From contig CP129470.1 of NCBI GenBank assembly GCA_030583685.1, positions 635,412 through 699,411 of the forward strand: 64,000 nt of DNA, in the 5' to 3' direction. The position numbers were made by a program, and so were the translations under genes. Positions 17,009 through 53,668 of this stretch are shown one piece after another. The notes under the pieces were generated by a model. The model had not been told where the DNA came from, ran no database searches, and saw only the letters and a list, made by a program, of their open reading frames with translations. The number at the start of each line of letters is the position of its first letter. Position 1 is the stretch's first letter. Origin of the DNA: Candidatus Dojkabacteria bacterium. Its GTDB lineage: Bacteria; Patescibacteriota; Dojkabacteria; GCA-002793355.

Positions 17009-17040
17009 TTCTTGATTTATCAAGAAGAGTGTCCTATAAT
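17009..17040 (+). promoter_or_regulatory. promoter TTGATT-17-TATAAT overlapped by a perfect 8-bp inverted repeat (TTCTTGAT-TT-ATCAAGAA). The -10 ends 5 nt before the ATG at 17046, consistent with a leaderless transcript
   Basis: Read directly: -35 at 17012-17017, -10 at 17035-17040, palindrome at 17009-17026. Confidence 0.45.
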
Positions 17041-44723: not shown

Positions 44724-45155
44724 ATGACACAACCACTTGCTATGAAACAGGTTCAAGAACAATTACTCCGTTATCAATCAGATTTGCAACATATTCCGGT
44801 ATCGGATCGCGATACCGTTGATCAGCAATTTTTCGCAATAGGCAAAAAATTGCTCTCCCTCTTCCCTCAGTTTACCTCCTCAGACCTTCCAACGCTCACG
44901 CAGTTGCTGGCCAGTTGGTATACACTCGTGTTGCAGCGCCTTCATACCGAAGCAGTTTCAGGAAATCAAGAGCTAGCCTATGCGTATGTGTTGCACTTGC
45001 TTGAGCAACCACCACTGACGGTGCAAGAAATGAAAGAACAAGTACCCTTGGCAATTAACGGAATTATCGCGTCATACCGCACAAAAGACTGGCACCGCCT
45101 TCTTTCTGGATTAGGAAGGGTGAGAGGGGGAATAGGTGAGGGTGGTGATGAATAA
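44724..45155 (+). CDS. hypothetical protein
   Basis: 143-aa ORF divergent from the wHTH/P-loop operon. The intergenic region carries a GTCCAAAG direct repeat and an AT-rich -10-like box. Confidence 0.4.
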   Translation: MTQPLAMKQVQEQLLRYQSDLQHIPVSDRDTVDQQFFAIGKKLLSLFPQFTSSDLPTLTQLLASWYTLVLQRLHTEAVSGNQELAYAYVLHLLEQPPLTVQEMKEQVPLAINGIIASYRTKDWHRLLSGLGRVRGGIGEGGDE

Positions 45156-45283
45156 GGAATTCCTTCGTTGCACTTCAAGGGAGCCTTTGTTGGTTAATGT
45201 GAGGAAGTGACGGATGTTACCCATGTTTTTGGAGAGATTATTATAAAAGTAGATTGTAGACACACATAAACAAAGACGGTACA

Positions 45284-47299
45284 ATGTTGATTATGGATGT
45301 TGCAGCTTTTGGAAATATTTCCAAAAAAAAAATAAAAATAAGTCAACGTAGGTACCTTGGGAGTAAGTCTAAGTTACTAGAATTCATTGAAGATATTCTT
45401 AAGAAAGAAAGTGTTGAATACAAGGTTTTTGCGGACATATTTGGTGGCTCTGGCGTCGTCGCTCATCACTTCTACGGGAGGGCAGATATTATTGTAAATG
45501 ACATTCTCAAGTCTAACTACCTTGCATACGTTGCATACTTTGGAAAAGGTCGAGTTCGCCAATTTTATATTGATAAAAAGATTGAAGAGTATAATGCTCT
45601 AGATTCTAAGAATATAACGGAAAATTATTTTTCAATAAATTTTGCTAATACCTATTTTGATCGTGAGAACTCCCTAAAAGCTGGTGCTATTCGAGATGAC
45701 ATTGAATTACAGTATACAAGCGGGTTTATTAATAATAGGGAACGAGCCTATTTAATTACGTCGCTGATATATGCACTTGATAGAATTGCTAACACGGTTG
45801 GTCATTATGACGCCTATAGACAAGTAACTATACCGAAACGCCCCTTGATTCTAAATCATTTAGAACTCAAAGTATGTAAGTCAAAAAGCTGGATTTACAA
45901 CATGGATGCGAACAATCTTGTAAAACTGATCAAACCAGATGTCATATATATTGACCCCCCATATAATTCTAGGCAATATTCGGACTCTTATCATCTACTG
46001 GAAAATATAGCTGAATGGAAGAAAGAGCCAGTATATGGAGTTGCAAGAAAAATTAACCGCTCTCACCTCAAAAGTAAATATTGTCTTAAGATTGCCGGGG
46101 AAACTTTTAGCGATTTGATTGATAAGATCGACGCAAAATACATTCTTGTTTCGTACAACGATATGGGAAAGAATGGAGATAACCGGTCTCAATCTCGAAT
46201 CACTGATCATGAAATCATTTCTGCGCTAGAACGATGTGGTGATGTTAAGATTTATGAAAAATCTTATAAACAATTCACTACAGGTCGATCGTCAAAGAAG
46301 GATCTTAGTGAAAGAATCTTTTTTTGCAGAGTCGGCAAAAGTCCACAAAAAAGGAGGTTACAGGTTTTCGTATCTAAAGGTGATGAGAGGAGAGAATTTA
46401 TAAAGTCTCCACTAAATTATACAGGTGGTAAATATAAATTACTTCCACAGATAACAAAATTTTTTCCAGATGAAATTGAAACATTTTATGATGTGTTTTG
46501 CGGTGGGGCGAATGTCGGGATAAATGTAAATTGTAAAAATGTAGTATGTATTGATAAGGATAGTCATGTAATAGATTTGCATCATTTAATTTCAACTGTT
46601 AACTTTGATGAGTTACATCAAAATATTCTTGCAATTATAGATCGATTTGGTTTGAGTCATAGTTTTGTGAATGGTTACGAGGTGTATGGCACTGAAAGTT
46701 CTAAAGGTCTGGGGCAGTACAATAAAGATAAATATTTATTGCTACGAGCAGAATATAATAAGATGGAGCAGTCTAATGAGAAAACACTTCTACTACTTGT
46801 ATTAATTATATATGCATTTAACAATCAAATACGCTTTAATTCAAAAGGTGACTTCAATTTGCCTGTAGGAAAGCGTGATTATAACGGTAGCTTACGCAGA
46901 AATCTTGCTGCATTTAACCGGGCAGCTATGGAAAAAGTAATTAAATTTCAGGTTGCTGATTTTAAGGATATACTCAAAATGCCCCTTATAGAAAAAGATT
47001 TTGTCTATCTGGATCCTCCATATTTACTTGGACTTGCTTCGTATAATGAAAATGGTAGATGGAATGAAAATCATGAGAAAAAACTATATTGGGTTCTCGA
47101 TAAGCTCAATAAACGTGGAATTCGGTTTGCTTTGTCTAACGTTATAGAACATAAGGGTACCTCAAACAAAATTCTTAAAAAATGGATTGAAAGTCGTGGG
47201 TATAGACTGAATGAGTTAGACTTTCACTACAATAACTCTAACTATCAGTCGAAGGCGAAATTTGACAGTTCGCTTGAGGTGCTCATTACAAATTACTAA
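45284..47299 (+). CDS. type IIS restriction-modification methyltransferase: fusion of two Dam-like (D12 class) N6-adenine DNA methyltransferase domains
   Basis: Two complete MTase modules, each with a DPPY motif (YIDPPYNSRQY; YLDPPYLLGLASY), plus N-terminal SAM-binding regions (FADIFGGSG; DVFCGGANVG). 671 aa. Strongly AT-rich. TACAAT overlaps the first ATG, so the real start is probably the ATG at about 45293. Confidence 0.8.
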   Translation: MLIMDVAAFGNISKKKIKISQRRYLGSKSKLLEFIEDILKKESVEYKVFADIFGGSGVVAHHFYGRADIIVNDILKSNYLAYVAYFGKGRVRQFYIDKKIEEYNALDSKNITENYFSINFANTYFDRENSLKAGAIRDDIELQYTSGFINNRERAYLITSLIYALDRIANTVGHYDAYRQVTIPKRPLILNHLELKVCKSKSWIYNMDANNLVKLIKPDVIYIDPPYNSRQYSDSYHLLENIAEWKKEPVYGVARKINRSHLKSKYCLKIAGETFSDLIDKIDAKYILVSYNDMGKNGDNRSQSRITDHEIISALERCGDVKIYEKSYKQFTTGRSSKKDLSERIFFCRVGKSPQKRRLQVFVSKGDERREFIKSPLNYTGGKYKLLPQITKFFPDEIETFYDVFCGGANVGINVNCKNVVCIDKDSHVIDLHHLISTVNFDELHQNILAIIDRFGLSHSFVNGYEVYGTESSKGLGQYNKDKYLLLRAEYNKMEQSNEKTLLLLVLIIYAFNNQIRFNSKGDFNLPVGKRDYNGSLRRNLAAFNRAAMEKVIKFQVADFKDILKMPLIEKDFVYLDPPYLLGLASYNENGRWNENHEKKLYWVLDKLNKRGIRFALSNVIEHKGTSNKILKKWIESRGYRLNELDFHYNNSNYQSKAKFDSSLEVLITNY

Positions 47300-47304
47300 T
47301 TAGT

Positions 47305-47313
47305 TGATATAAT
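47305..47313 (+). promoter_or_regulatory. extended -10 TGATATAAT immediately upstream of the restriction endonuclease gene (ATG at 47322)
   Basis: Read directly. Gives the REase its own promoter at the 3' end of the MTase gene. Confidence 0.5.
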
Positions 47314-47321
47314 TACAAATA

Positions 47322-49115
47322 ATGGCTGAAGTATGGAGTTTTAACACAACCATCCGAAATCCTGAACGTCTAGAGTCGCTACTCAGAATCCTGTCCGACA
47401 TGGAGGGAGTGATCTTCGATGCACAAGGTCAAGAGCTCTTTTTTAGTTTGCAAATAAAGAAACGGTTTTACAAACCTAGTAGGAGTACTTTGGGAGAAGA
47501 ATTAGCGTCCGCAGTTTTTGATTCCGAGCAAAATGAAGAACTTGATGATAGTGTCGTTAGTAGTATTCTGGACCAATATAGAGGAAACGTCGATAGTGCT
47601 GGTCGTGGGCGAACCTCAGTTGCTGTTCTTAATAGATTTGGATTGAGTATTGCCCTTCAATCTCATGGTCCCGTAATTATTACGCCTTTAGGTAAGAAAT
47701 GGCTTAGCGGCGAAATTGATGATGAGGAACTTTTTACGCGTTTTCTGTTAAGATGGCAGTATCCGAACCCGATTGAAAGTGGGTATACCAATTACGATAT
47801 TAAACCTTTTCCAGCTGTGCTGCAGCTTATTAATGAAGTTAACATAAAATGGAAGGCTGCTGGTAATAATCCCGTAGGTATATCAAAAGATGAATATCGA
47901 CTTTTTGCATTATCATTACATCGGCAAAGTGATATTGTAAGTGCAGCAGAACAAATAATCGAACTCAGAAGGTGTGTCAACACTTTAGTTGGAACCGAGC
48001 GTTCAGATTATATAAATAGATTTACACAACAGCGTGTTATTGGGATTTTTGGTGACACAAATGATGAGCCGATTAGGAAACACATTAGTAATCTAAAAGA
48101 TTACACTGACTCATCTCTACGGTACTTTAGAACATCGGGCTTGATTACACTGCGTGGTGCGGGTCGGTATATAGACATTGCTGTTGATAAAAAAGTAGAG
48201 GTAGATAGTATTCTTAACGACGTTTCCTTAGAGTCAATTGGCTTTACTGAAGCTGCAGATTATCTTGCTTATCTCGGTGATTTATCCTATGAATTACCGT
48301 GGCAAAATGAGGAAGATCTACAGAGGATTAGCGAAAATCTTATGTCCGTTCTTGAATCTGAAGTCCAAGAAACTACGATTGAATTTGATTCTTCAACGAT
48401 CCACAACAAGACTCTTCCACAGAAAGTTAGTATACTCAAAGGCAGAATCAATCAGGTACGTATAGAAAAACTTCGATCACTTAAGCATGACTTAGAAGTA
48501 CTCGATGAAGCAATAGAGAAGTTGTCGAGTATTACTAGCCCAAGGTACGAAATCATAACATCCCGTCCATCTCTCGATTTAGAGTGGTATGTTTCAAGAG
48601 CGCTTATGGTTATCAATGATGCCATTAGAATTGACCCAAGTTTCAAGGTGGGGGATGACGGAGTACCAACTGGTTTTAGGGGTAAAATCTCTGATATTGA
48701 GTGTGAATATACGTCATTTGGATTGACGGTGGAGGTGACACTAATTAAGGGCCGAGACCAATGGTACGCAGAAGGACAGCCTGTTATGAGACACCTAAGA
48801 GATTTTGAAGACACTTTGCCTGAAGGCAAGGAAGCGTACTGTGTGTTTATTGCCCCTCATATTCACCGTGATACGTTAAATCAATTCTGGACTAGTAATA
48901 AATACGAATTTGAAGGAAGGCGGCAGAAAATTATACCTATTTCGATTGGTGAGTTTGTAGACTTCTTGCACAAAGCTCGTGAAATGATTCAATCGAGTAC
49001 TCTGGACCATAGTGCACTAAGAGAACTACTTAACAATATAACTTTATCAGTCGATACTTATTCTGACTCAATCGAGTGGCAAAGCAATATACATAATACT
49101 ATCTTAGGTTGGTAG
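47322..49115 (+). CDS. AlwI/PleI/MlyI/N.BstNBI-family type IIS restriction endonuclease
   Basis: 597 aa, the same size class as N.BstNBI/PleI. Motifs recalled from that family: FLLRWQYPNP (compare KWQYPS), SLRYFRTSGLITLRG (compare TRYFRYTGLFVARG), YCVFIAPHIHRDT (compare YCLFIAPEINKNT). Paired with a tandem-Dam MTase, as for GAGTC/GGATC type IIS systems. Confidence 0.7.
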   Translation: MAEVWSFNTTIRNPERLESLLRILSDMEGVIFDAQGQELFFSLQIKKRFYKPSRSTLGEELASAVFDSEQNEELDDSVVSSILDQYRGNVDSAGRGRTSVAVLNRFGLSIALQSHGPVIITPLGKKWLSGEIDDEELFTRFLLRWQYPNPIESGYTNYDIKPFPAVLQLINEVNIKWKAAGNNPVGISKDEYRLFALSLHRQSDIVSAAEQIIELRRCVNTLVGTERSDYINRFTQQRVIGIFGDTNDEPIRKHISNLKDYTDSSLRYFRTSGLITLRGAGRYIDIAVDKKVEVDSILNDVSLESIGFTEAADYLAYLGDLSYELPWQNEEDLQRISENLMSVLESEVQETTIEFDSSTIHNKTLPQKVSILKGRINQVRIEKLRSLKHDLEVLDEAIEKLSSITSPRYEIITSRPSLDLEWYVSRALMVINDAIRIDPSFKVGDDGVPTGFRGKISDIECEYTSFGLTVEVTLIKGRDQWYAEGQPVMRHLRDFEDTLPEGKEAYCVFIAPHIHRDTLNQFWTSNKYEFEGRRQKIIPISIGEFVDFLHKAREMIQSSTLDHSALRELLNNITLSVDTYSDSIEWQSNIHNTILGW

Positions 49116-49142
49116 CTAATGATTGGGGAATGATAGCATTTA

Positions 49143-49814
49143 TTAAGATTTGAATATTCGATTGAAGTAAAATCGTTTGAACAATTGCAAAATATTATGG
49201 TGTTTTTTCGCAATTTTTGAATGAGATCGTTGCATTCGATTTAGAATAAAGCTTAAAGAAGTTTTTGTTTGTTCTTCTCCAAATTTTGTTGCAAATGTTG
49301 ATACACCTTCCTCTTTATCGAACTTGATATCCATGAGATCATCTAATAGCTGGCGTAGTAGAAAGTAGTCGGCAATATAGTTTAAATCCTTAAATGAAAG
49401 TTGACTATTTGCTTTTTTTATCAAATTTGTTAGTGGTCGATGTCTATTAGTAATTGAAAGCAGTGTATCTCTTTTTACATTGTGAATCTCGAAGTAATCA
49501 CTCATTTTGTACAGCTCCCAGATAGAAATGATTTTCTCTGTTTGTATTGGGCTATCAGTGTAGTTAATAAAGATTAGTGTATCTGTAAAAATAGTATCGT
49601 AAATAGCATTTGGTCTTAAATTTTTGGAAATTGTGTTAAGACACCTGAGGTATGACCGGAGGTTAGGGTCGTTATTCGTTATTTCAAATGTTTTATAATA
49701 TTTAGTCAAAAAAACGCAATGATACAACGAGGGAAACTTTTTAGTCGAAAAAAATAAATACAAGAAAAGCGAGATACTGTTTGTAAGTAAAGTTTTTGTA
49801 ATTATGGATTCCAA
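49143..49814 (-). CDS. hypothetical protein in the AT-rich island. Contains a UbiA-like Asp-rich segment, but the protein is not strongly hydrophobic
   Basis: QLLDDLMDIKFDKEEGVSTFATKFG resembles the UbiA second motif (DDDLKIGIKSTAILFG), but there are no 8-9 TM helices and the protein is only 223 aa. Very AT-rich codon usage. Confidence 0.35.
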   Translation of the reverse strand: MESIITKTLLTNSISLFLYLFFSTKKFPSLYHCVFLTKYYKTFEITNNDPNLRSYLRCLNTISKNLRPNAIYDTIFTDTLIFINYTDSPIQTEKIISIWELYKMSDYFEIHNVKRDTLLSITNRHRPLTNLIKKANSQLSFKDLNYIADYFLLRQLLDDLMDIKFDKEEGVSTFATKFGEEQTKTSLSFILNRMQRSHSKIAKKHHNILQLFKRFYFNRIFKS

Positions 49815-50030
49815 GGCAGTTTGACTTTACTCAATAATGGTACGATAAACTCTACAACTTGATTGAATATTTCCATGAAGCTATGGTGAGCCATTTTTAT
49901 TAGAAAGTCAAGACCACATGTTTGTTGCACGACTTACAGTCTCTTTGAAAGTTCAAGCTATAGATACAGACAATCCATGAAAAAGATTGTATGGCTTCGT
50001 GAGCTGAATTATATGAGAGTATAATAATGA

Positions 50031-50972
50031 ATGGTAAAAAGGAGTAATGATACAAAGTCTCGTATGAACGTTGACTTGTTTAGCGATATAAAAATTGTCG
50101 ACGATGGGTGTTATTTAAAATTGCCTAATTTAAATTCAGACAAATATAGGACATATGATCCTGAGTATATCGTTACAGGTATGATAAAAACTAGAAGAAG
50201 AAAGATTAATGAATTATGGAAAGTTTTCAGAGGAACGCAGGATAACGATTTTTTGAATCAGTACAAATACGATAAAAATTTCTCTTCACGGATGTGGGAA
50301 ATGTATATTGGAGTTATATTGCTTAATAATGGTTGTAAGATTAATGCTAAAAATAACTCTCATTTAGATTTCTTTGTAAATGATTCTTTCTACATAGAAT
50401 GTGTATACCCTCAAAATGCAAACTGTCAAGATAAGCCTGACTATGTTAAGCCGTTGCTTAGGAAAAATAATATCACCGAAAGACCTGAAGAGAGTTTCAA
50501 AACAAGAATTACAAGTTCCATTGCAGATAAGTATAGAAAATACCGGGAAAAGTTAGAGAATGGTAGTGTCAATGAAAATGTGCCCTATGTACTTGCAATA
50601 AATACTGCTTTTAGGGATATGCCCGATGGGATTGTCCATTCTTTATTATTTGGGTATGGCAATACCCAAATCTTATACCAGCGTGATAAATCAGATTTTG
50701 GTACAAAAGTGGTTGCCTATGACAAGGAGAGTATATCTTATATCCTCAAAAGTTTCTGTAAAAAGGTTACAATTGGATACTTTGAGAACAATGAATTTGA
50801 CGGAATAAGTGCAGTCATTTGTTGTAATAATCATATTATTAATTCATCAAAAGAACCTGGCGCAGATTGTTATATAATACGGAATCCATATGCAAAAAAT
50901 GTATTGTGTAACCAAATTAATTTCATTTCAGAAATTTACAGAGAAGATAACTTTGATGGTATATTCTGGTAA
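50031..50972 (+). CDS. hypothetical protein (313 aa) in the AT-rich island
   Basis: Long AT-rich ORF with TATAAT about 5 nt upstream of the ATG (leaderless-type). No motif. Its position next to the R-M system suggests a defence or mobile-element cargo role. Confidence 0.5.
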   Translation: MVKRSNDTKSRMNVDLFSDIKIVDDGCYLKLPNLNSDKYRTYDPEYIVTGMIKTRRRKINELWKVFRGTQDNDFLNQYKYDKNFSSRMWEMYIGVILLNNGCKINAKNNSHLDFFVNDSFYIECVYPQNANCQDKPDYVKPLLRKNNITERPEESFKTRITSSIADKYRKYREKLENGSVNENVPYVLAINTAFRDMPDGIVHSLLFGYGNTQILYQRDKSDFGTKVVAYDKESISYILKSFCKKVTIGYFENNEFDGISAVICCNNHIINSSKEPGADCYIIRNPYAKNVLCNQINFISEIYREDNFDGIFW

Positions 50973-51043
50973 CAATATCAAGATGTATAGTGAATCAAAA
51001 AATGCTATATGTTTGGTCTATCGATATATGCATATTGAAGTTT

Positions 51044-53668
51044 TTACCCCTCATTCACCACCTTCTTTAACTGTTCTACCAGCAGGAGGGCTTGGAGGGG
51101 GGTGAGGTTGTTTGGGTCGACGTCTGAGAGTAATTCCTTGACTCGTTTACTTTGCTCGCTTTCAATGGTGCGTGGGGTAGAAAAGAGGTCGAGTTGCGAG
51201 TCGTTTGTTTCCTTGGAGCGTGCGGGTTGTCTAGGAACGGTTAATTCCTTCCCTTCTACGGACAGGGCTCTGGTTTCAAAGGAATTGAGCACCTCAAAGG
51301 CGGTATCGATAATTTCCTTGGGTAAATTGACCAGTTTTGCAACCTGAATACCATAGCTTTTATCACTTCTGCCTCGAGTAATGGTGTGCAAGAAATAAAT
51401 GGTATCGTTTTCCTCTTTCAAGTTGACCTTGTAGTTGATAAATTTCTGGGATAACTCCTCTAAATCGGTTAACTCACGAAAATGTGTGGTGAATATGGTG
51501 GTGCAGCCAATTTTATGGGCAAGATACTGTGCAATGCCCCAGGCAAGCGAAATTCCTTCGTAGGTGCTGGTGCCTCGGCCAACTTCGTCAAGAATGACCA
51601 AAGAATGTGGCGTTGCCTGTGATACGATATAGGCAACCTCCGAAAGTTCAACCATAAAGGTGCTTTTTCCCGTAGAAATATCGTCTGATGCACCAATTCG
51701 CGCAAAGACTTTGTCGACCAAGGGAAGTGTCGCTCGTTCAACGGGAATATACGAACCGATTTGTGCCATAATCTGTAAGAGTGCAATCTGGCGAACGAAT
51801 GTTGATTTTCCTCCCATGTTTGGTCCAGTCAAAATCAAGAAGTTGCTGTCTTGGGTGATTTCCAAATCATTCGCGACAAATTCGGAGACAGTGTTTTCAA
51901 CAACGGGGTGGCGCATGCCGGTTATCTGCATGGTTCTTTCGGTTGTGGTAAGGGTTGGTCGCGTGTAGCGTTTAGTCAACGCTGAAGTCGCAAAACTGGT
52001 TAAAACATCAACAGTTGCGACCATTCTGCCGAGTGCAACCAATTCAGGAATATACTCCTGCAGTTCAGAAATAAGTGCTTTATACAATTCCGCCTCAAGA
52101 AGCTGCATATTGTCCCGTGCTGACAGTACTTGTGCCTCAAGTTGTTTTAGTTCTTCGGTAATATATCGCTCTGTGTTCACCAGCGTCTGTTTTTTTATAA
52201 AATGCGCCGGTGCGTTGGCACTTTGTATACGGGATAATTCGAAGGAATACCCAAAAATATTGTTAAAACTGAGTTTTAAGCCGGGAAGATCGTGGGATAC
52301 TTTCTCTTTTTGGTAAAGGTCTTGAATGTACCGTTCACCATTTGTTGACAGTTCGACCAATTTGTCCAATTCTTGATTGTGTCCCATAGAGACGAAGGTC
52401 GGGCGGTCTCCGTTATCTGATAGTATATTTCGGACTTTTGCGATGAACGCTGATAATTTTATCTTTTGTGTTTTTTCGATTTTTGGGATTGCGGGTAATT
52501 TTTCATGGAGCACAGTAAGTGAAATTCCTTTTTCGACTGCATCCGCCAGTGCGAGTACTTGTCGAAAATGAATTCGTCCGAGACCAAGTGCGCTGGTCAA
52601 TCGCTGGATATCAGGGTAGCGTTGCAACAGGTTTCGAGTCTCTTGATAATGACTGCTGTTTCGTGTATAATGCTCAACTGTATCGTATCTACGGCCCAAT
52701 TCTTCAGGGTCCGTTAACGGAAAGGAAAGCCACTCATACAAGAGGCGGTGACCGGGCGCTGTTTGTGTCTGGTCAAGTATTCCGAGGAGCGATCCTTCAA
52801 GACGATGTGTCTTGAGGTTGTAAAAAAGTTCTAAATTTCTCTGAGTGGTTGGGTCAATCTGGAGTGTATGTCTTAGATTAAAATACTCGAGGGTGGTAAT
52901 GTGTTTTGGTTCAGTTTTTTTTGTTTCTGCAAAATATGTGAGTAAAACGCCGGAGGCTATAGTTGCAAGGGGGTATTCAGAGAGTCCCAGTGGGTCTAGA
53001 TTGGGTACACTAAAGTGAGACAGGAGCGTTTTGGTACTTTTTTCTAAAGAAAATTCTTTATCCTCTAGTGGCTGGATAACCATTCGGTCATGTTTTCGAT
53101 ACTGATATCCATCTTTCATCGACTTTAAGAGCTCTTTGATTCCTAATTGTTCCAAAATATCATCAATCTCTTCGTGATTCTTGGTGACATTTCCTTCATA
53201 CACCTTAAATTCACCGGTTGAAATGTCTGCAAACGCAAGTCCAAACTTTTGTGGAGTGGTCACAATACAGGCAATATAATTCTTGTTTTGCGAGAGTAAT
53301 TCTTCTTGTGTTGCGATGGTCCCTTGGGTAATAACTTCAGTTACCGCACGCTTCACAATACCTTTTGCATTTTTTGGGTTTTCCATTTGACGGGCAACGG
53401 CCACTTTTAGCCCTGCGGCAATGAGCTTTGGTAGATACTCATCAAGCGCTTTTTGTGGGAAGCCCGCCATCGGTGGTGCTTTTTCATCTTTTGACCGACT
53501 GGTCAGCACAATGCCAAGCACTTCGGAAACTTTGACCGCGTCGTCGTAGAAACATTCAAAAAAGTCTCCCATTTGAAAAAGTAAGAGGGCATCTGGATAT
53601 TCCGCCTTGATGGCAGCGTATTGCGCCATCAGTGGCTTAGTTTCGGTCATATGGGAATTGTAACACAT
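51044..53668 (-). CDS. mutS: DNA mismatch repair protein MutS
   Basis: N-terminus MTETKPLMAQYAAIKAEYPDALLLFQMGDFFECFYDDA (mismatch-binding domain). Walker A GPNMGGKSTF. MutS domain V (ILDEVGRGTSTYEG). 874 aa. Confidence 0.95.
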   Translation of the reverse strand: MCYNSHMTETKPLMAQYAAIKAEYPDALLLFQMGDFFECFYDDAVKVSEVLGIVLTSRSKDEKAPPMAGFPQKALDEYLPKLIAAGLKVAVARQMENPKNAKGIVKRAVTEVITQGTIATQEELLSQNKNYIACIVTTPQKFGLAFADISTGEFKVYEGNVTKNHEEIDDILEQLGIKELLKSMKDGYQYRKHDRMVIQPLEDKEFSLEKSTKTLLSHFSVPNLDPLGLSEYPLATIASGVLLTYFAETKKTEPKHITTLEYFNLRHTLQIDPTTQRNLELFYNLKTHRLEGSLLGILDQTQTAPGHRLLYEWLSFPLTDPEELGRRYDTVEHYTRNSSHYQETRNLLQRYPDIQRLTSALGLGRIHFRQVLALADAVEKGISLTVLHEKLPAIPKIEKTQKIKLSAFIAKVRNILSDNGDRPTFVSMGHNQELDKLVELSTNGERYIQDLYQKEKVSHDLPGLKLSFNNIFGYSFELSRIQSANAPAHFIKKQTLVNTERYITEELKQLEAQVLSARDNMQLLEAELYKALISELQEYIPELVALGRMVATVDVLTSFATSALTKRYTRPTLTTTERTMQITGMRHPVVENTVSEFVANDLEITQDSNFLILTGPNMGGKSTFVRQIALLQIMAQIGSYIPVERATLPLVDKVFARIGASDDISTGKSTFMVELSEVAYIVSQATPHSLVILDEVGRGTSTYEGISLAWGIAQYLAHKIGCTTIFTTHFRELTDLEELSQKFINYKVNLKEENDTIYFLHTITRGRSDKSYGIQVAKLVNLPKEIIDTAFEVLNSFETRALSVEGKELTVPRQPARSKETNDSQLDLFSTPRTIESEQSKRVKELLSDVDPNNLTPLQALLLVEQLKKVVNEG

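Follow-up and report, generated by a model that had tools for sequence, protein, structure and literature searches.

What occupies the AT-rich segment beside mutS in Candidatus Dojkabacteria bacterium (contig CP129470.1, positions 635,412 to 699,411; this whole stretch of 64,000 nucleotides (nt) is called the window, and coordinates refer to it unless another locus is named), how did it arrive there, and which DNA site would its enzymes methylate and cut? The segment, 45249–51043, is best explained as a small defence island made up of an AlwI-family type IIS restriction-modification (R-M) cassette, in which a methyltransferase (MTase) gene is followed by a restriction endonuclease (REase) gene, and of a PD-T7-5-like nuclease; a probability of about 0.8 was assigned to this explanation. 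An acquired R-M pair in a patescibacterial host had been proposed earlier from the bare letters (the original prediction). The host was placed correctly: its NCBI name is Candidatus Dojkabacteria (candidate division WS6), a group which we take to belong in Patescibacteria.

Composition and gene content

The guanine-plus-cytosine (GC) content in 500-nt windows was 0.31–0.37 over approximately 45.25–51.0 kb, against 0.42–0.46 in the left and 0.43–0.48 in the right flank. Segment 45249–51043 has a GC content of 0.348 (other 5.8-kb stretches of the window: mean 0.417, standard deviation (sd) 0.015, minimum 0.384); it is the most AT-rich 5.8-kb stretch in the 64 kb and lies 4.6 sd under the remainder, and the sharp drop claimed earlier for about 45.2–51.0 kb relative to the flanks is borne out. 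GC by gene: MTase 0.342, REase 0.396, ORF223 0.302, ORF313 0.316, mutS 0.440, ORF143 0.465. The island holds four open reading frames (ORFs); the R-M pair had been recognised in the original prediction, and ORF313 and ORF223 had been overlooked. The features are as follows (aa, amino acids):

44724–45155, + strand: ORF143, 143 aa, core flanking gene at the left; ORFs of similar size and the same orientation in two Dojkabacteria relatives (L004, L006).
45132–45248, – strand (that of mutS): gene remnant, the final ~39 codons of a gene that codes for a 352/355-aa membrane protein in these relatives; left island junction.
45284–47299, + strand: MTase, 671-aa ORF; 668 aa from the probable start Met4 at 45293.
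47322–49115, + strand: REase, 597 aa, AlwI family.
49143–49814, – strand: ORF223, 223 aa, orphan ORF.
50031–50972, + strand: ORF313, 313 aa, predicted PD-(D/E)XK-fold nuclease.
51044–53668, – strand: mutS, core flanking gene at the right; MutS domains I–V all present (Pfam).

Methyltransferase

Homologue alignments begin at residue 4–7, so the true start is probably Met4 (45293) and not 45284. Each half alone passes Pfam PF02086 (cut-off 22 bits) over almost the full profile (N-terminal half 99.2 bits, 4.3e-28; C-terminal half 122.2 bits, 4e-35), and the chain was divided into two modules of the D12 class:

45293–46340, + strand: N-terminal module, D12-class N6-methyladenine (m6A) MTase of the 'DNA adenine methylase' lineage; boundary approximate.
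46341–47299, + strand: C-terminal module, T4 Dam-like D12 MTase.

The N module contains FGGSG at aa 53 and DPPY at aa 224 (nt 45953–45964), the C module FCGG at aa 405 and DPPY at aa 577 (nt 47012–47023). The whole protein matches the PADLOC fused type II MTase models PDLC03292 (4.5e-174) and PDLC03287 (1.4e-127, 646 positions), the latter being presumably M.FokI, an unconfirmed guess from the model length; stand-alone models were matched by residues 15–350 (PDLC03373, 2.4e-101) and 369–671 (PDLC03383). The C module matches T4 Dam (1yfj; 6.2e-42) and TIGR00571 dam (2.1e-46; 158.8 vs. a subfamily cut-off of 114.85); it does not reach the E. coli Dam equivalog model (60.5 vs. 441), and the N module has no match among solved structures. 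The halves are not a recent duplication: BLASTP between them gave motif-level similarity only. The 'tandem-Dam fusion' of the original prediction therefore stands as to two D12 modules, each with DPPY, and is to be corrected in that only the C module is Dam-like, the N module belonging to a different D12 lineage. M.FokI-type MTases carry two independent m6A modules in one chain, one for each strand of an asymmetric site (PMC12898733). The window MTase has the same two-module chain as these tandem D12 enzymes; the partner REase is of another family, FokI not being an AlwI-family endonuclease. Of the two modules in the window MTase, each would methylate the adenine of a different strand within an asymmetric site, and host DNA would be protected.

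Endonuclease

The REase matches Pfam PF09491 RE_AlwI over residues 106–547 (9.8e-79; 265.8 bits, cut-off 23.1; profile positions 3–440 of 441), N.BspD6I (2ewf) across residues 92–559 (6.3e-24), the BspD6I small subunit (2p14) over residues 414–590 (6.7e-10) and PADLOC PDLC03393 over its full length (8e-129). The assignment to the AlwI/PleI/N.BstNBI family is thus confirmed, and all three motifs named for it (WQYP, RYFR.SGL, YC.FIAP) were found, as WQYP at aa 145, RYFRTSGL at aa 267 and YCVFIAP at aa 506. An N-terminal DNA-binding part is followed by a C-terminal PD-(D/E)XK catalytic domain (~aa 405–597), in which E421, D458, E471 and E484 align with E418, D456, E469 and E482 of N.BspD6I; the four residues are invariant across 118 full-length homologues of 38–100% identity. 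In N.BspD6I, catalysis is abolished in the D456A and E418A variants (PMC6261011). The gene has its full length and looks functional. The enzyme would bind the same site as the MTase and cut a few bases to one side; type IIS action is suggested by the two different MTase modules.

The family includes double-strand cutters that work as homodimers, AlwI and MlyI, and also the large subunit of BstNBI/BspD6I, which nicks by itself and cuts in company with the small subunit encoded by a neighbouring gene (PMC3017599). A profile of the REase catalytic domain (E<=10), run against all six-frame ORFs of the window and of six cassette loci, found REases only and no BspD6I-type small subunit. Since no second-subunit gene is present, double-strand cutting through dimerisation is most likely; the enzyme is probably a homodimeric cutter in the manner of AlwI and MlyI: its chains would pair transiently and cleave both strands.

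A sister clade of 621–630-aa AlwI-family proteins (~39% identical; PADLOC 'nicking' cluster) has a conserved 326–330-aa ORF abutting the REase start; in the sister-clade locus of Mesobacillus maritimus no D12 methyltransferase was called nearby. The ORF was located as follows:

L109/L110, 4994–5986; L111, 5020–6000: sister-clade 326–330-aa ORF, function unassigned.

Distribution and known relatives

The REase search gave 456 homologues at E<=1e-5. The named ones of 50–73% identity are mostly from the Candidate Phyla Radiation (CPR): Roizmanbacteria, Paceibacterota, Moranbacteria, Magasanikbacteria, Kaiserbacteria and Yanofskybacteria. A cassette of fused MTase and then REase was found in 14 other CPR loci (REase 50–73% identical to that of the window; fused MTase ~667 aa, spacer 20–33 nt, REase 596–600 aa), and both MTase modules occur in the same order in 11/11 loci with enough upstream sequence. 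Among six close-relative loci with called genes, a serine recombinase adjoins the cassette in three, and others have relaxase-like genes or genes of type IV secretion next to it. Taken over all six, the neighbours comprise large serine recombinases, type IV secretion genes (TrbC, TrbL, PrgI, TraC-like, VirB4-like), a relaxase-like protein, a coupling-protein-like ATPase, Mrr and ApeA. To judge from these contexts, the AlwI-family cassette travels through the CPR on mobile elements.

The methylation partner of an AlwI-family REase regularly combines a 'DNA adenine methylase' module with one of the Dam type, either in a single fused chain or split. The pairing with a fused 'DNA adenine methylase-Dam' MTase has already been described (PMC12898733), the protein is already named in GenBank and CPR homologues are many, so the novelty first attributed to the R-M system was overstated. 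The Mycoplasma and Streptococcus systems of the same report, compared by description only, have the same fused order as the window, a non-Dam D12 module and then a Dam-type one.

The AlwI/EacI-type GGATC systems on plasmids (A. lwoffii pH7-48, G. stearothermophilus pGS18, P. megaterium YC4-R4; loci L103–L105) share with the window cassette the two MTase module types, the MTase-then-REase order, the location on mobile DNA and the protein sizes (MTase ~630–710 aa, REase ~560–600 aa). Identity to the window proteins is 23–25% (REase) and 23–28% (MTase), against 35–42% and 58–70%, respectively, among the plasmid systems themselves. In these systems the Dam-like module stands first and is of the EcoDam type (LKWAGGK, PFGKY), whereas in the window MTase (45293–47299) it stands last and is of the T4 Dam type; the reversed order would mean that the modules were fused independently or changed places. 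A helix-turn-helix regulator gene stands upstream in the A. lwoffii system and is missing from the window cassette. Strain YC4-R4 methylates GGATC (PMC13224479), and the strain name suggests assigning this motif to locus L105.

N.BspD6I/N.BstNBI (GAGTC) resemble the window REase in the layout of recognition part, linker and catalytic domain and in the aligned acidic residues, whereas overall similarity is low, and the small-subunit gene that belongs to them was not found in the window. SfaNI-like AlwI-family systems of GCATC/GATGC specificity are known from Caldicellulosiruptor BluCon085 (PMC9799307) and S. xylosus TMW 2.1324 (PMC10030836); compared by description, they likewise join an AlwI-family REase to adenine methylation on both strands of an asymmetric 5-bp site. 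The Caldicellulosiruptor system uses two separate MTases, unlike the fusion in the window; in S. xylosus the REase and MTase have ~706–708 aa.

Origin of the island

In Dojkabacteria relatives L004–L006 MutS is 73–74% identical to that of the window. The gene order of L004 and L006 is PPDK, mutS, a 352/355-aa membrane-protein ORF that overlaps the mutS stop, 0–3 genes, an ORF143-like ORF, ORF335, ORF342 and VanY; none of the four island ORFs is present at this syntenic site in L004 or L006. The ORF143-like ORFs (147 and 121 aa, adjoining the ORF335 homologue in L004 and L006) were matched to ORF143 by size and orientation, sequence similarity being undetectable. When the 355-aa ORF of L004 and the 352-aa ORF of L006 were used as tblastn queries, the sole match in the window was the remnant at 45132–45248 (E 7e-4 and 6e-3), which aligns to their C-terminal ends (residues 318–352 and 314–349, respectively). 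Only this C-terminal remnant is left, exactly at the left AT-rich edge, and therefore the insert would have replaced ~950 nt of the membrane-protein gene. The right junction lies within the 71 nt that separate the ORF313 stop from the mutS stop. The island is taken to be of foreign origin and to have displaced the greater part of the gene that otherwise follows mutS. Horizontal acquisition beside mutS, as originally predicted, is upheld independently by the missing genes at the site in relatives, by the gene remnant at the left edge and by the contexts of related cassettes, which resemble integrative and conjugative elements (ICE-like).

Recognition site

The C module reads DNA with the hairpin FNNQIRFNSKGDFNLPVGKR; within the CPR clade this Dam-like hairpin is near-invariant (FNNQIRFNSKGxFNLPVGKR). 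It retains F111, R116, P126, K129 and R130 of T4 Dam; N stands in place of S112, as in EcoDam, and Q in place of M114. The S. epidermidis and Helicobacter systems, whose modules are T4 Dam-like as well, have lost the K129/R130 pair. GATC is read by F111, S112, M114, R116, P126 and R130 in T4 Dam and by Y119, N120, L122, R124 and P134 in EcoDam. Of the EcoDam counterparts, R124 recognises the C:G pair at position 4, Y119 is intercalated between A and T, and L122 and P134 contact the neighbouring pair; first-base contacts differ within the Dam family (PMC4417163). The C module belongs to the MTase of an R-M system and not to a solitary Dam, and its hairpin is compatible with a GATC core and is not proof of it. 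A GATC-containing asymmetric site is the best guess, because the Dam-like module keeps the GATC-reading residues of T4 Dam; a site of the GGATC type, built on a GATC core, is put forward tentatively, at slightly short of even odds.

GATC is the most depleted tetranucleotide in the window (observed/expected ratio (O/E) 0.59, z –10). Its O/E is 0.64–0.86 in other Dojkabacteria loci (L004–L008, L065), from relatives without the cassette in the fetched loci; the depletion is lineage-wide, and k-mer avoidance was rejected as a read-out of specificity. GTAC and ACGT are likewise low in the window.

Promoter-like elements and expression

Two promoter-like sites were located by a consensus scan:

45257–45285, + strand: MTase promoter-like site TAGACA-17-TACAAT, ending 7 nt before the ATG at 45293; scan 10/12.
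47285–47313, + strand: REase promoter-like site ATTACA-17-TATAAT with extended –10, ending 8 nt before the ATG; scan 10/12 plus TG.

A promoter of the REase inside the 3' end of the MTase gene had been predicted. A separate promoter-like element is indeed present, of which only the –35-like ATTACA (47285–47290) lies inside the MTase gene; the –10 element TGATATAAT (47305–47313) lies in the 22-nt spacer between the genes, after the MTase stop codon (47297–47299). TTGWTATAAT is invariant in the closest group (5 sequences, 4 distinct cassettes), in which nearby codons vary, and TATAAT, TATACT or TATTCT stands 6–9 nt before the REase start in 15/15 cassettes, none with a Shine-Dalgarno sequence. 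In most homologous cassettes a –10-like hexamer also stands 6–7 nt before the MTase start, and the MTase gene of the window, like its REase gene, lacks a Shine-Dalgarno sequence. Shine-Dalgarno words were found at the first start codon of 0/38 long ORFs of the window, and a strong –10 box lies 4–9 nt before the ATG in 11/50 window ORFs (starts e.g. at 17040+, 42573–, 6689–, 12115–), vs. 1–2 at control offsets. This genome appears to make common use of leaderless mRNAs, and the REase is likely to have its own; MTase and REase would be made from separate leaderless or near-leaderless mRNAs. The same layout being widespread among the window genes, it was rejected as a cassette-specific control device. 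No C-protein gene was found: the 128-nt gap between ORF143 and the MTase contains no ORF, and the upstream genes of homologous cassettes are varied.

ORF313 and ORF223

ORF313 (GenBank 'hypothetical protein' QY312_03285 of the same record) matches PADLOC PD-T7-5 (1.1e-18), PD-T7-1 (1.7e-11) and phrog_8571; the PADLOC match is limited to residues 69–263 (profile positions 41–231 of 346). PD-T7-5 and PD-T7-1, single-gene anti-phage candidates from an E. coli pangenome screen, are listed as PD-(D/E)XK nucleases (PMC10952713); ORF313 is likened to them by profile and by the predicted fold, its structure model being of the PD-(D/E)XK type. Relatives of ORF313 comprise no close ones and 708 distant cluster representatives, mostly of ~300 aa; E90, D113, E123, R159, K167 and N285 are invariant. 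ORF313 is a predicted nuclease and would constitute an independent second defence-type gene. ORF223 gave no match in Pfam, NCBIfam, PADLOC or PHROGs and no homologue in a search of 5.8 billion proteins or in phages, and is not present in any of the 14 related cassettes. Its single-sequence structure model has a predicted confidence (pLDDT) of 40, gene callers give it 206 or 120 aa, and it lies in the most AT-rich part (30% GC); the gene may be in decay or may evolve very fast.

Alternative explanations

Several observations weigh against the explanation given above or against parts of it. All mechanistic steps are drawn from homology. No integrase or recombinase was found among the four island ORFs (Pfam and PADLOC scans) and no tRNA gene in the window; Rfam families gave no island hallmark, and the island flanks have no direct or inverted repeats beyond short ones at chance level. 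Promoter-like sites in the region are as many as expected by chance (24 vs. 24.4), and the case for the promoters therefore rests on conservation. The best PADLOC model of the REase, PDLC03393, is labelled 'Type II nicking endonuclease'. Identity of the REase with the enzymes of the GGATC clade (A. lwoffii, G. stearothermophilus, P. megaterium YC4-R4) is only 23–25%, and N.BspD6I is about as distant; specificity is therefore not transferable from either. The AlwI-family system of Caldicellulosiruptor was predicted to recognise GASTC and found to recognise GCATC (PMC9799307); as sites of the family include GAGTC and GCATC and one prediction failed, the site does not follow from membership in the family. 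The GAGTC/GGATC avoidance count proposed earlier was run, and neither pentamer stands out: O/E 1.04–1.05 for GGATC and 0.86–0.87 for GAGTC in the window and in 243 kb of pooled cassette-bearing host DNA. The missing integrase, tRNA and edge direct repeats, together with a GATC depletion in the island (O/E 0.68) similar to that of the host, would suit an ancestral stretch of fast-evolving host DNA that was never acquired; this reading is hardly credible in view of the gene remnant at the left junction, the four genes missing from the syntenic site of relatives, the homologous cassettes in ICE-like elements of other CPR phyla and a base composition so far below the remainder of the window. For the cassette as acquired DNA, the earlier choice between GAGTC-like and GGATC-like sites was too narrow, AlwI-family GCATC systems being documented (PMC9799307, PMC10030836). 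A site such as GAGTC (PleI/MlyI/N.BstNBI type), or another one lacking the GATC core, e.g. GCATC (SfaNI type) or GGATG, is a serious possibility, held at somewhat less than even odds: the REase matches N.BspD6I as well as it matches the GGATC-clade enzymes, the specificity of the N module is not readable, and GAGTC is mildly low in the pooled host DNA (O/E 0.87, z –2.8, rank 26/512), CCATC being lower still. These k-mer signals are weak and unspecific, however; GAGTC has no ATC core, and the C module has the T4 Dam residues for all four bases of GATC, including R116 (C:G at position 4) and R130 (first G), and keeps the K129/R130 pair that the S. epidermidis and Helicobacter modules have lost.

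As to the mode of cleavage, a natural strand-specific nickase, monomeric like isolated N.BstNBI/Nt.BspD6I, would agree with the name of the top PADLOC model, with the single active site per REase chain and with the failure to find a partner subunit gene in the window. The PADLOC label is a database name, however, and not an assayed activity; N.BstNBI/BspD6I proved to belong to a heterodimeric cutter, as its large subunit, and cleavage of both strands by a homodimer is the mode of AlwI and MlyI (PMC3017599). Linkage to a two-strand MTase in many genomes would also fit a lethal double-strand cutter better, and a nickase is considered improbable. It is more improbable by far that ORF313 or ORF223 supplies second-strand cleavage in the manner of the BspD6I small subunit: neither occurs in any of the 14 related cassette loci, the catalytic-domain profile of the REase does not match ORF313, ORF313 comes from a large family of stand-alone ~300-aa proteins and is separated from the REase by ORF223 on the opposite strand, and the partner ORF of the sister clade has no similarity to ORF313. 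For the CPR-wide clade as a whole (REases 50–100% identical, invariant MTase hairpin), it is rather unlikely, at odds somewhat better than those of the nickase taken by itself, that the site is new to the AlwI family or that a stand-alone nickase is combined with a two-strand MTase.

Significance

Practical value is modest and nothing is conceptually new, architecture, family and mobility being established and the gene already named in GenBank. With the methylated site known, Patescibacteria would be easier to manipulate genetically, and in long-read metagenomes the methylation motif would help to link contigs, phages and plasmids with their hosts; as a divergent member of the AlwI family, the enzyme could also be developed into a new reagent for type IIS cutting or nicking. 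Should the CPR-wide clade have an unassigned site or a stand-alone nickase, a new type IIS or nicking reagent would be gained, together with a methylation mark common to many Patescibacteria.

The locus in other samples

A 5978-nt contig from a second sample (run DRR779146; L001) is 100% identical to positions 45108–51085 of the window. Its ends include flanking DNA, 140 nt and 42 nt beyond the island junctions; they were considered as a sign of mobility and rejected as such, since the contig shows only the same arrangement in a second sample. The exact flanking proteins turned up only in the SRR24881069 assembly. The interval from mutS to the ORF335 homologue measures 1.6 kb and 3.9 kb in relatives and 6.4 kb in the window, with differing gene content (L004, 12603–16412; L006, 5226–6724), and appears to be a local hot spot of gene turnover.

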